NCBI GenBank assembly: GCA_934772045.1
Contig: CAKVMH010000002.1
Span: 219,062 to 283,061, forward strand
DNA from: an uncultured Clostridia bacterium
GTDB lineage: Bacteria > Bacillota > Clostridia > Christensenellales > UBA1242
Reading direction: 5' to 3'
DNA length: 64,000 nt
In this document: piece after piece, positions 2,025 through 5,904 of the stretch
Layout: each line of letters starts with the position of its first letter
How positions within the stretch are numbered: the stretch's first letter is position 1
The notes under the pieces: model-generated
Seen by the model: only the letters and a program-made list of their open reading frames with translations
Told to the model about the DNA's origin: nothing
The model's database searches: none
Made by a program: the position numbers and the translations under genes

Positions 2025-2707
2025 TAATCAATATTAGGCTAGGGCACACTGCCAATTTGGTAAAATCGCTTAAAATATATAAGGGAATTTATACCAAAAT
2101 ATCTGTGGACATCCACAGGGCAGTGTGAAAGCTTACACACATATCTTTGCGTAAAACAACACTTTTACGCAAAGATATGGTAAAATAAAGCAAAAAATGG
2201 GTGGATAACCCTTAAATTTTCCACATTTTTAAAAATAAACTTTATAATGCTTGACAATTCGACAAGATTTAATGTGTACAAATTTTACGTTATTAATTTT
2301 TAATAATTTTCGGTTTTAACTAAAATTGATGATTTACTTTTATTCATCTTTAAGCAAATTTTCAGTTTTAGTTTTTTTATAAATCTCAAACATACATTGT
2401 TTTGATTGCCTAACAGATTTTATAAAATCTATATCTGCAATTTTAAAACTTAGATGAAGAATTCATCATCTTTTTATTTCAAAATCGCTCTCAGAGCATT
2501 TTAGAGATTTCCCTTTTTGTATCCTAATTAGCATTAGTTTATCATTAATATATTTTTTCATATAATGTTAATCAAACATTCTTATTACACAAAATTTGCA
2601 TTCTAGGTTTTCCTTTAAAGATTTATATGAATATTTATATAAAGAAATTTTAGGTTAATTTTATAAGATTGTTGGTTAATGTCAAAATTCACATCTTTGC
2701 GTAAAAA

Positions 2708-2761: not shown

Positions 2762-4051
2762 TTATTTATTTTTAGGCATAATAACTGCTTTGCCAGCCAT
2801 GTATGGACGCAAAACTTCTGGCACGGTTATTGAGCCGTCTTTATTGTAATTATTTTCAACCACCGCAATCAAACCGCGTGGACTTGCCACAACTGTATTA
2901 TTAAGTGTATGCACTAAATATGTGCCCTTCTCGCCTTTTGTGCGGATATTCAAACGCCTTGCTTGTGCATCGCCTAATGTTGAACATGAACATACTTCAA
3001 AGTATTTTTGTTGACGTGGGCTCCACGCTTCGATATCGCAAGATTTAACTTTCAAGTCAGCCAAATCGCCTGTGCAACAGTCGAGTTGACGCACTGGAAC
3101 ATTCATATTATTGAATATTTCAACTGAATAACGCCACATCTTTTCATACCATTTCATGCTATCTTCTGGTTTGCAAAGCACAATCATTTCTTGTTTTTCG
3201 AATTGATGTACCCTATAAACACCGCGTTCTTCAAGACCGTGAGCGCCGATTTCTTTACGGAAACATGGGCTGTATGATGTCATGGTAATAGGCAATTCAC
3301 TCTCATTAACAATCTGCCCTTTGAACCTACCAATCATGCTATGTTCACTTGTACCAATAAGGTATAAATCTTCATTTTCAATTTTATACATCATGGCGTC
3401 CATTTCAGCAAAACTCATAACACCATTAACAACATCGCTTCTAATCATAAAAGGCGGAATTGCATATGTGAACCCTTTATCAATCATGTAATCACGCCCA
3501 TAGGCAATCATAGCCTCATGTAAGCGCGCGATATCCCCTAACAAATAGTAGAACCCATTGCCCGATGTCCTACCGGCACTTTCTTTATCTAAACCACCAA
3601 CACTTTCAAAAATGTCAGCATTGTAAGGGATTTCATAATCTGGCACTTTTGGCTCACCAAAACGAGCAACTTCAACATTTTCGCTGTCGTCTTTGCCAAC
3701 CGGAACTGATGGGTCAACAATGTTTGGAATGGCCATCATATTTTGCCTAATTTTTTCGCTATATTCAGCAACTTGTGCTTCAATTTCAGCAATCCTAGCA
3801 TTGTTTTTAACAACAACCGCTTTAATTTCATTTGCTTCGTCAATGCGTTTTTCACGCATTAAAGCACCAACTTGTTGTGATAAGGTATTGCGTTTTGCGC
3901 GTAAATCATCGCCTTCTTGTTTTAAAAGACGGATATCTTTATCCCATTCCAAAACTTCATCAACTAATGGTAATTTTGCGTCTTGAAATTTCTTTTTAAT
4001 GTTTTCCTTAACTAAATCTGGATTAGTTCTAATAAGATTAATGTCAATCAT
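2762..4051 (-). CDS. serS: Seryl-tRNA synthetase
   Basis: 429 aa. N-terminal coiled-coil arm (MIDINLIR...VKENIKKK) and class II core motifs (TSEHSMIG, FRKE, VHQFEK, GSACSTLGD-like). Confidence 0.95.
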   Translation of the reverse strand: MIDINLIRTNPDLVKENIKKKFQDAKLPLVDEVLEWDKDIRLLKQEGDDLRAKRNTLSQQVGALMREKRIDEANEIKAVVVKNNARIAEIEAQVAEYSEKIRQNMMAIPNIVDPSVPVGKDDSENVEVARFGEPKVPDYEIPYNADIFESVGGLDKESAGRTSGNGFYYLLGDIARLHEAMIAYGRDYMIDKGFTYAIPPFMIRSDVVNGVMSFAEMDAMMYKIENEDLYLIGTSEHSMIGRFKGQIVNESELPITMTSYSPCFRKEIGAHGLEERGVYRVHQFEKQEMIVLCKPEDSMKWYEKMWRYSVEIFNNMNVPVRQLDCCTGDLADLKVKSCDIEAWSPRQQKYFEVCSCSTLGDAQARRLNIRTKGEKGTYLVHTLNNTVVASPRGLIAVVENNYNKDGSITVPEVLRPYMAGKAVIMPKNK

Positions 4052-4159
4052 GTCAATTCTCCTTTAATTCAACATATTGTGTGATTTTTCTTTGATTTAG
4101 GCTATATATAAAATAAATATTATGTTCTGCATTAGTTTTGTAAACCCATTTGTTTTTAG

Positions 4160-4385
4160 AAAATAAAAAAACCACCACTAAAATAATATAGAGGTGATAT
4201 TTACCACTGTGCCACTCTAATTTGAGCAAAAATGCCCCAACTCGTATATGCAAATTGCGCCTTGCATTGGCCCCGCATTACCAGGTATCTCAAGGGGTAG
4301 ACGTGAAATCCTTCCATGAATCGCTCTCACCAACCGCGAAACTCTCTCCCACTTCCAAAAGTCACTAGTCCCTTTCAAACGATAT
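4160..4385 (-). promoter_or_regulatory. T-box riboswitch leader of serS (specifier probably UCU, Ser)
   Basis: Minus-strand reading shows AGAGAG/GGTGAGAGCG stem I elements, a specifier-loop candidate CACG-TCT-A, the T-box sequence AATTAGAGTGGCACAGTGG, then an imperfect terminator hairpin ending in T7 directly upstream of serS. Confidence 0.7.
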
Positions 4386-4612
4386 ATTAAACTAATAAAA
4401 TTCTAAATGTAAATCAAAATTTTGTCAATTAATTTTTGCAAGTTTTTTATATTTTTATAAGAAATTTATTTGTGTTTTTTACGCAAAGATGTTAAAATTA
4501 TAGTGATGTAAATTAGATTGTTTTTGATAAAATTTTTAAAAATTTTCAATAATCATCTCATTTACCATGCTGTAACATTTAAATTGTTCAATTTGAACTA
4601 AAAGGTTAAATT

Positions 4613-5680
4613 ATGTCAAACAACTATTATTTAGATAGAAATCGTAAATACATGCAAAAATTAAATGAAATGTTGTGTGATTTGCCGAGTTTTTGCAGTA
4701 TATTTTTCATTGGTATACAGGACACCACCACCCCGCTCACTCGTTTTAATTATGCGGTTGATTTAAAAACATTCTTTAATTACCTTGTAACATATGAAAC
4801 TCATTTTTTTAATAAACCTATTACAAGCATTACTTTAAGTGATATTGATGAAATTGATGCTCAACTTATTGAGCGTTTTATGGCATATTTGTCCTATTAT
4901 GACAAGGAAAACGGCGAGATTTTAACAAATGGTGAACGCGGAAAGTTAAGGAAACTGTCTACCCTTCGCGCGTTCTTTAAATACTTTTTTAATAAGGATA
5001 TGTTAAGAGCAAATGTTGCAAGCAAGGTAAAATCGCCAAAATTACACGATAAACCTATCATTCGCTTGGAACAACAAGAAACTGAAGAATTGATGTATTC
5101 CTGCGATAGCCTTGCAGGTTTTAGCATGCACCAACGCAAATACAATGAAAAGTTTAAAATACGCGACAACGCCATTTTGTCTTTATTTTTAACGACAGGT
5201 ATCCGTGTTAGCGAATGTGTTGGTTTAAATGTTGATGATATTAACTTTAACCTTAACTCATTCAGGGTTACACGCAAAGGTGGTAACCAAGTTATTTTAT
5301 ATTTTGGCGAAGACACGGCAGAAGCATTAAAATCTTACCTAGCCTACCGCGACACATTGCATATTCCAAAAGAAGAACGCGCTTTGTTTATTTCCAGCCA
5401 AGGCAAACGCATGATGGTTAGGAATATGGAATATTTGGTAAAAAAATATGCCAAAGTTGCCACCCCACTAAAAAATATTACACCACATAAATTGCGCTCT
5501 ACATATGGCACGAACCTGTATAATGAAACAAAGGACATTTATATTGTTGCAGAAGTTTTAGGTCATAAAGATGTAAACACAACTAAAAAACACTATGCTG
5601 CAATCAGTGACGATATACGTCGTTCAGTTGCTGGCAAGGTAAAATTAAAAAGTGAAAGTTCCCCTACTCACGGTAACTAA
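4613..5680 (+). CDS. Tyrosine site-specific recombinase, Xer family (355 aa, XerS-like length)
   Basis: C-terminal catalytic region has R (TGIRVSE), HKLRSTY, LGHKDVNTTKKHY (catalytic Tyr). N-terminal SAM-like core-binding domain. SD-like aaaagg lies 5 nt upstream of the ATG. Confidence 0.85.
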   Translation: MSNNYYLDRNRKYMQKLNEMLCDLPSFCSIFFIGIQDTTTPLTRFNYAVDLKTFFNYLVTYETHFFNKPITSITLSDIDEIDAQLIERFMAYLSYYDKENGEILTNGERGKLRKLSTLRAFFKYFFNKDMLRANVASKVKSPKLHDKPIIRLEQQETEELMYSCDSLAGFSMHQRKYNEKFKIRDNAILSLFLTTGIRVSECVGLNVDDINFNLNSFRVTRKGGNQVILYFGEDTAEALKSYLAYRDTLHIPKEERALFISSQGKRMMVRNMEYLVKKYAKVATPLKNITPHKLRSTYGTNLYNETKDIYIVAEVLGHKDVNTTKKHYAAISDDIRRSVAGKVKLKSESSPTHGN

Positions 5681-5760
5681 CTGTCACGATTTTATGAATT
5701 ATAAATATGTAAATTATTGTATAATCTATAATTTACGGTTGAAATTGTTTATTTCTTTCA

Positions 5761-5856
5761 CAATTTAGAAGCAAAATTACTCATTTTATTCGCAATTTAA
5801 AAGGAAAATTACTCATTTTATTCGTAATTTAAAAGGAAAATTACTCATTTTATTCG
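5761..5856. repeat. Three tandem copies of a 32-bp repeat (plus a partial fourth) between the recombinase gene and the lexA promoter
   Basis: Units caatttaRaagSaaaattactcattttattcg at 5761-5792, 5793-5824 and 5825-5856. The fourth copy breaks off exactly at the SOS box. Confidence 0.9.
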
Positions 5857-5864
5857 TAATTTAT

Positions 5865-5878
5865 CGAACAAATGTTTG
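5865..5878 (+). promoter_or_regulatory. LexA (Cheo/SOS) box overlapping the lexA promoter
   Basis: CGAACAAATGTTTG compared with the Firmicute consensus CGAAC-N4-GTTCG. It overlaps the -35 TTGACA at 5876-5881. Confidence 0.7.
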
Positions 5879-5904
5879 ACAAATAGATTTTTTTGTGTTA
5901 AATT
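5876..5904 (+). promoter_or_regulatory. Sigma-A type promoter of lexA
   Basis: TTGACA (5876-5881), a 16-17 nt spacer, then TTAAAT/TAAATT (5898-5904), about 70 nt upstream of the lexA ATG. Confidence 0.55.

Follow-up and report, generated by a model that had tools for sequence, protein, structure and literature searches.

A symmetric palindrome at the replication terminus of a gut Christensenellales bacterium is a probable dif site of a single Xer-type recombinase

Introduction

The 64,000-nt stretch of DNA analyzed in this study (hereafter, the window) belongs to a Candidatus Onthoplasma-type bacterium (Christensenellales), a group represented by metagenome-assembled genomes (MAGs) of ~1 Mb from the gut, and carries at 2140–2179 (no strand assigned) the palindrome CATATCTTTGCGTAAAA-CAACAC-TTTTACGCAAAGATATG, in which two 17-nt arms (left, 2140–2156; right, 2163–2179) are 100% complementary and enclose an asymmetric 6-nt centre (2157–2162). 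What is the role of this palindrome, and which protein acts on it? A first-pass annotation, which had quoted the sequence exactly as we find it, took it for a dif-type site of an Xer-family recombinase of 355 aa encoded 2.4 kb away, and likened the enzyme by its length to the XerS type; it suggested looking at the GC skew, at further genomic copies, at orthologous loci, and for a canonical Firmicute dif with xerC/xerD elsewhere in the genome.

Xer systems with a single recombinase have, to our knowledge, been described in four lineages, XerS, XerH, XerA and XerL. In the XerS/difSL system of streptococci and lactococci, one recombinase of ~356 aa acts on a site that lies at the skew switch and is linked to its gene (PMC1914069, PMC2965235, PMC5357621); the 31 bp of difSL comprise unequal, imperfect arms around an enlarged centre (PMC5357621). 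The XerH/difH system of Helicobacter and Campylobacter has a single recombinase of 354–362 aa, a site near the gene and a dependence on FtsK, and difH is nearly palindromic with ...TGAAAA arms, whose imperfection sets the order of cleavage (PMC3325230, PMC5241119). XerL/dif, a lineage-specific system of the Legionellales with one recombinase, was recognised in organisms without XerCD by a site that occurs once, at the skew terminus, and has been proven through recombination assays and deletion phenotypes (PMC9765430). Our literature search found no description of such a system in Clostridia. Based on comparisons of sequences, we consider it highly probable (roughly 85%) that the palindrome is the chromosomal dif site at the terminus, served by the single neighbouring XerS-like recombinase.

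Results

The expectation for a perfect 17-6-17 repeat, which we calculated from the base composition (per-position match probability, ~0.276), was ~2e-5 per 64 kb and ~3e-4 per genome. In the assembly searched (1,053,235 bp in 7 contigs, 98.6% complete), the full palindrome was present once. The 14-mer ATCTTTGCGTAAAA of its arms had four exact copies, i.e. both arms of the palindrome and two isolated arms at 2693 (+) and 4477 (−), all confined to 2.4 kb, and one copy with a single mismatch was found on a different contig. Since the four genomic copies are all local, the arm motif is not a dispersed repeat, and readings as a dispersed repeat, REP or MITE were excluded. Other candidates were also rejected. 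No T-run follows the palindrome on either strand, in agreement with the first-pass annotation, and the terminator scan had no entry for it, so that an intrinsic terminator, defined by a G+C-rich stem-loop and a U-run, was discarded on the missing T-run. Neither abutted IS ends (a circle junction) nor a 544-bp MITE with ends at 2163 and 2706 was supported: a transposase and further copies were lacking, and the gap between the palindrome and the arm varies from 312 to 1013 bp across species with just two conserved blocks in it.

The cumulative G−C skew of the contig that holds the window (C2, 309,545 bp) reached its maximum at C2:221,192 (window 2131), 9 bp off the palindrome in a per-base calculation, the exact base being favoured by the location of the palindrome between convergent genes. 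In 10-kb bins, the skew was positive throughout 1–220 kb and negative throughout 230 kb to the end, leaving a positive stretch of ~220 kb on the left of the palindrome and a negative stretch of ~88 kb on its right. The cumulative minimum was found on another contig (C1, near 250 kb), which also carries the origin markers, dnaA at 246.9 kb and the densest DnaA-box cluster of the genome at C1:245,683. Transcription converges on the palindrome, with miaA (2–802) and a ynbB-type PLP enzyme gene (786–2024) on the + strand to its left and nearly all genes of window 11–62 kb on the − strand. In 120-kb stretches from 6 other genomes, which had been centred on the palindrome, the skew was uniformly positive for 60 kb and then just as uniformly negative; the distance between the palindrome and the skew maximum was 325, 724, 9 and 18 bp in four congeners, and 224 and 175 bp in two distant relatives whose recombinases are 47–48% identical. 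Two of the six relatives have a second full site ~1.5 kb from the maximum (overall range, 9–1520 bp).

The palindrome is flanked by DnaA-box-like words (2103–2225, no strand assigned), which are CTGTGGACATCCACAG at 2103–2118, GGTGGATAA at 2200–2208 and TTTTCCACA at 2217–2225. Across the aligned loci of the genus (18 of 18), the GTGGA/TCCAC columns showed little or no variation, the general pattern being TGTGGAyA ~35 bp left of the palindrome, and yGTGGAwAA followed by TTrTCCACA, often plus TGTCCACA, on its right. Beside the palindromes of more distant lineages, no GTGGA/TCCAC words were found. These words prompted an oriC reading, which was excluded by skew sign, gene orientation and the position of dnaA: the palindrome is not oriC because it lies at the skew maximum, whereas dnaA and the densest box cluster are located at ~246 kb of C1. 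Just two DnaA boxes within one mismatch were found near the palindrome.

The neighbouring gene at 4613–5680 (+), hereafter xer, is real and encodes an Xer-type tyrosine recombinase of 355 aa (Pfam Phage_integrase, 2e-33), the proposed cognate enzyme of the palindrome. Its best NCBIfam model was XerS (NF003462, 172.7 bits, aligned over 3–355 of 360 positions), but the equivalog cut-off of 267 bits was missed; the XerC, XerA and XerD models scored close behind, and the protein is below the cut-off of every named Xer equivalog. The nearest solved structure was E. coli XerD (1a0p, E = 5e-21), in the alignment of which the catalytic R-K-H-R-H-Y motifs appeared as TGIRVSE, KGG, HKLRST, GHKD and HY, and the weakest Xer structure matched was XerH (5jjv, E = 4.5e-8). 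Annotations of homologues of the recombinase go no further than "integrase" or "tyrosine-type recombinase". Two tyrosine recombinases were identified in the genome, this one and a 463-aa phage-type integrase with SAM-like domains; xer is the single Xer-type gene, and no XerC/XerD pair was found in the genome. With the B. subtilis or E. coli dif as query, there was no genomic match at up to 7 mismatches. The pattern CATAA-N6-TTATG gave one match of chance level, around window 16450.

Both FtsK, with FtsK_alpha, motor and FtsK_gamma (79.5 bits) domains, and Smc are encoded in the genome. Among its oligomers, the most polarised were AAGGGCA (170 leading versus 14 lagging) and AAAGGGCA (72 versus 1). 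Along C2, the strand ratio (+:−) of AAGGGCA was 41:1 on the left of the palindrome and 0:17 on its right; the strand switch falls within 1364–2929 (no strand assigned), the last + copy being at 1364 (−776 bp) and the first − copy at 2923 (+783 bp). Some of the right-hand copies keep the replication polarity within + strand genes, and convergence of AAGGGCA was likewise seen in relatives. From this bias, AAGGGCA/AAAGGGCA can be regarded as a candidate FtsK-orienting (KOPS/SRS-like) motif for this Christensenellales family; AAGGGCA behaves as expected of guide words that FtsK would read.

For comparison, 45 related loci were recovered. The full palindrome was present in ~28 of them as ATCTTTGCG(T/C)AAAA-N6-TTTT(A/G)CGCAAAGAT, in which the spacer was 6 bp without exception and the orientation of the centre relative to xer was constant. 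Lineages whose recombinase is 47–53% identical have their own palindromes of like design, 0.15–3 kb upstream of xer, for instance TCTATGCGTAAAA-GCCGTG-TTTTGCGCATAGT at locus L049, TCTATTCGCAAAA-TACAGA-TTTTGCGAATAGA at L053, TTATTCGTAAAA-CCTGCA-TTTTACGAATAG at L048 and ACTATGCACAAAA-CGCGAG-TTTTACGCATAGT at L051. The recombinase was found exactly once in 75 of 81 sampled genomes of the family, spanning 53 of 58 genera. The strict core GCGYAAAA-N6-TTTTRCGC matched 9 family genomes, once each, and in 9/9 this single match sits 0.2–2.5 kb upstream of xer.

In two distant relatives (G005 and G006), a pair of inverted full sites encloses xer; these sites are located at 5822–5853 and 7118–7149 of L051 (G005:C9, ~105.0–106.4 kb) and at 5859–5890 and 7133–7164 of L052 (G006:C23, ~109.6–110.9 kb). 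The centres of the paired sites are reverse complementary within a species and different between species (CGCGAG/CTCGCG and TGCAAC/GTTGCA, respectively), suggesting exchange between the two sites. Judging from these centres, xer may form an invertible cassette at the terminus of these genomes.

We also compared the two arms with each other. The variable position was T/T or C/C in 25 of 29 loci with a full palindrome, a count inflated by the relatedness of the species, and paired changes elsewhere in the arms were observed in L013 and L031. Left and right arms were unequal at the variable position in L022, L042, L044 and L049. The isolated arms nearly always have T at this position, even where the palindrome has C, the exceptions with C in the promoter arm being L013, L038, L040 and L046. 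As a pattern of aligned sequences, this co-variation is consistent with one protein reading both arms, along with a homogenising process within the palindrome.

Neither of the isolated arms of the window (2693 and 4477) has a second arm beside it. One of them is a half-site at 4475–4492 (−; exact 14-mer, 4477–4490), which occupies the 17-nt spacer of the xer promoter between the −35 box TTGTGT (4470–4475) and the −10 box TAAAAT (4493–4498), and is a proposed operator. Directly upstream of xer, 35 of 39 related loci showed the consensus tTTGTT-TTTTACGCAAAGAT-nTnnTATAAT, i.e. a −35 box and a −10 box with the arm filling the 17-nt spacer between them, and a degenerate second arm is retained at the xer promoter in L054, L025 and L047. 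Promoter spacers normally show no sequence conservation, so the promoter arm is best read as an operator; given this conservation pattern, we lean towards such a role for 4477–4490, through which the recombinase would most likely repress its own gene.

The other half-site, at 2690–2708 (+; exact 14-mer, 2693–2706), lies by a bidirectional serS terminator and a leftward promoter (− strand; TTGACA, 2685–2680; 16-nt spacer; TAAAAT, 2663–2658). A (+) arm was present 310–1010 bp right of the palindrome in 28 of 28 loci examined, and was sometimes doubled. Opposed arm pairs occur in some species ~300 bp on either side of the palindrome; in L027, L034 and L046, the arms of the pairs that flank it on both sides in opposed orientation are 40 bp apart.

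Several minor features were noted around xer. In L014, L016, L017, L026, L028, L030, L035, L041, L042 and L054, the xer ATG comes merely 6–7 nt past the −10 box, implying leaderless xer mRNAs in many relatives; in the window, 123 nt separate the two and include a second promoter-like site (4524–4553). A perfect single arm, CTATGCGTAAAA, was found within the 5′ part of the xer coding sequence at L051 (6200–6211) and L052 (6206–6217). Upstream of xer, L050 (5840–5900) and L053 (5880–5935) have 4–5 tandem or inverted copies of TTGCATAGTA, which resemble the outer arm part ACTATGCA of other lineages and by this resemblance are possibly operators.

The two isolated arms, inverted to each other, enclose a complete serS transcription unit (2762–4428, −) consisting of the gene (2762–4051, −; Pfam seryl-tRNA synthetase domains), its leader and its promoter (TTGACA-17-TAGAAT, 4428–4400, −; promoter scan), and the unit is bracketed by a 34-nt inverted repeat (2688–2721/4462–4495). 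The leader (4187–4388, −) matched the T-box family with a score of 49.3 bits (E = 3.7e-9) against a gathering score of 93, and would thus be a divergent T-box missed by standard annotation; this sub-threshold match and insignificant matches on the palindrome were all that a search for known RNA families in the region returned. Between the palindrome and serS is an AT-rich gap of 740 bp without ORFs, and beyond xer are lexA, a PadR-type gene and ABC transporter genes. To judge from its layout, the order arm(+)–serS unit–arm(−)–xer would be the expected result of the serS unit inserting into the centre of an ancestral full site proximal to xer.

Discussion

We computed how the palindrome is built, that it is unique, conserved and linked to xer, where it lies relative to the terminus, and that XerCD/dif is absent; together these results support the claim of the first-pass annotation that the palindrome is a dif-type site. 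As to binding, cleavage positions, FtsK dependence and autoregulation, we infer a course in which the identical arms of a pair of sister sites would be occupied by four copies of the 355-aa recombinase, while FtsK, guided to the terminus by AAGGGCA and similar polar words, would join the sites at the septum; strand exchange across CAACAC would then resolve the chromosome dimer into monomers. Because the arms are identical, the direction of the site would be given by the asymmetric centre alone, as in Cre/loxP. The arm at 4477–4490, between −35 and −10, would let the recombinase repress xer, and in relatives where a full site abuts xer, the full site would take over this autoregulatory role.

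Cre/loxP likewise has one recombinase and symmetric arms, and its directionality resides in the asymmetric centre; loxP is a phage-borne 13-8-13 site, and Cre is not Xer-like and acts independently of FtsK. The present site shares with it the perfectly symmetric arms and a direction set by the centre alone, and differs in its 6-bp centre and its Xer-type enzyme. Like XerS/difSL, it combines a single recombinase of ~355 aa, a site at the terminus linked to the gene (2.4 kb apart here, 0.15–3 kb in all relatives), FtsK, and arms ending in ...GAAAA. It differs from XerS/difSL in the model score given above, in its 6-bp centre with equal arms that are perfectly symmetric over 14–17 bp, and in the separation of the full site from the gene by 2.4 kb with serS between and one arm at the promoter. 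With a score under the cut-off and a different site architecture, the system is not XerS proper; of the XerS analogy drawn by the first-pass annotation, the enzyme size, the site-gene linkage and the best-scoring model hold, whereas the equivalog score and the architecture do not. The difSL arm TTTCCGAAAA and the difH arm AGTTATGAAAA both end in ...GAAAA at the centre (PMC5357621). Our arms are more like these two than like the XerC arm of E. coli, which the first-pass annotation had named and to which the resemblance is weak. XerH/difH is also similar in having a single ~355-aa recombinase, a gene-linked site with arms that end in ...AAAA at the centre, and FtsK, but it belongs to a different phylum and the proteins are only weakly similar (the 5jjv and 1a0p matches above). 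Unlike difSL and difH, the perfectly symmetric arms provide no built-in order of strand exchange. The likeness to XerL/dif lies in the unique terminus site and the absence of XerCD, although the lineages are unrelated and the present system is known from its sequence. The system is thus not XerH, nor is it XerCD/dif, including CodV/RipX of B. subtilis, which differs in that here there is one Xer gene and no related 28-bp dif.

Known dif sites have neither additional conserved arms nor GTGGA/TCCAC words, and dimer resolution does not account for these features. The palindrome might therefore be both dif and the core of a larger module organising the terminus, in which the isolated arms recruit the recombinase without recombination and the flanking words bind DnaA or another factor; we regard this extension as rather unlikely. 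XDS sites, the subject of Karaboja et al. 2021 as described in PMC11840125 and PMC12322038, are dif-like XerD-binding sequences near the B. subtilis terminus, which unload SMC and are not recombination sites. By analogy, the arms could unload or stall Smc-ScpAB, or else hold a local pool of enzyme; the present arms resemble XDS in being candidate recombinase-binding sequences near the terminus of a genome that encodes Smc, but they lie within 2.4 kb of dif and are not spread over the terminus region.

Apart from this extension, the explanation that competes best with a dif site, improbable as we consider it, is that the palindrome is an att or inversion site and not a site of dimer resolution, belonging to a mobile or invertible element that has been domesticated or has decayed. 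The recombinase would then invert, or would once have integrated, the DNA between inverted sites, which is the serS unit in this window and the xer cassette in distant relatives. The inverted arms bracketing the whole serS unit would agree with this, as would the paired sites of G005 and G006, whose centres suggest ongoing exchange, and a precedent is given by Acinetobacter plasmid modules flanked by inverted dif-like sites (PMC6449649). However, the arms around serS have neither a second arm nor a shared centre, and the orientation of serS relative to xer was identical in every assembly examined. In addition, the recombinase is a single-copy core gene over the 53 of 58 genera, and the full site follows the skew switch in every genome tested. 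This explanation is also compatible with dimer resolution, and both could be true together.

We give still less credence to an operator of a factor other than the recombinase, such as LexA or the PadR-type protein, or to a fork-arrest (Ter-like) site for some other protein. One arm lies in a promoter spacer and another beside a promoter, as an operator might, and in L027, L034 and L046 the arms form opposed groups to the left and right of the palindrome, which recall opposed Ter sites. Nevertheless, no gene other than xer goes with the site in every lineage, serS, lexA and padR being absent at L051 and L052, and AAAA-N6-TTTT with an invariant 6-bp centre is the design of a tyrosine-recombinase core site. 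The least probable of all is a hairpin, in RNA or DNA (a cruciform, a stem that stabilises a transcript, or an atypical terminator for the ynbB-like gene), with an incidental link to the recombinase: the predicted fold is dominated by the 17-bp perfect stem, an Rfam search gave a weak RNA-OUT-like match (E = 0.15, insignificant), and a selected hairpin would produce the same co-variation, with complementarity kept in most species, but it lacks the U-run on both strands, has arms non-complementary at 1–2 positions in L022, L042 and L044, and leaves unexplained the conservation of the stem sequence itself, its recurrence as single arms that cannot pair, the design kept beside xer in the different contexts of distant relatives, and the position at the terminus.

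If the dif reading is true, this would be a fifth single-recombinase Xer lineage, beyond XerS, XerH, XerA and XerL, and one that belongs to the core of an entire family of uncultured ~1-Mb gut Clostridia (Christensenellales, Candidatus Onthoplasma and >50 sister genera). The site could provide a precise terminus marker for the fragmented MAGs of this family. With symmetric arms, the enzyme and FtsK would have to draw all directionality from the 6-bp centre, and such a compact enzyme with its 34–40-bp site could serve as a simple Cre-like tool. For xerS, autoregulation through difSL was raised as a speculation by Le Bourgeois et al. (PMC1914069). In this genus, serS appears to have pulled the recombination site and the promoter arm 2.4 kb apart, a natural separation of functions; that the two are physically separate agrees with the long-standing idea of autoregulation of single Xer recombinases through their own site, and makes it directly testable. 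If the module reading were also true, termination or dimer resolution would be linked to the initiator protein DnaA.

Finally, the gap between the palindrome and serS and the region downstream of xer contain further elements. No convincing small conserved ORF was found in 2180–2690. A conserved element of ~55 nt at 2450–2505, which consists of TTAGATGA...TCATCTTTTT, forming a terminator-like hairpin, and then a short palindrome AATCGCTCTCAGAGCATTTTAG, is common to most relatives, while the remainder of the gap is unalignable; a strong leftward promoter (2685 to 2658) is directed at this element. Between the xer stop codon and lexA, four tandem 32-bp units of AAATTACTCATTTTATTCGYAATTTAAAAGG are located at 5710–5863, each of which holds an AATTAC...GTAATT inverted repeat.
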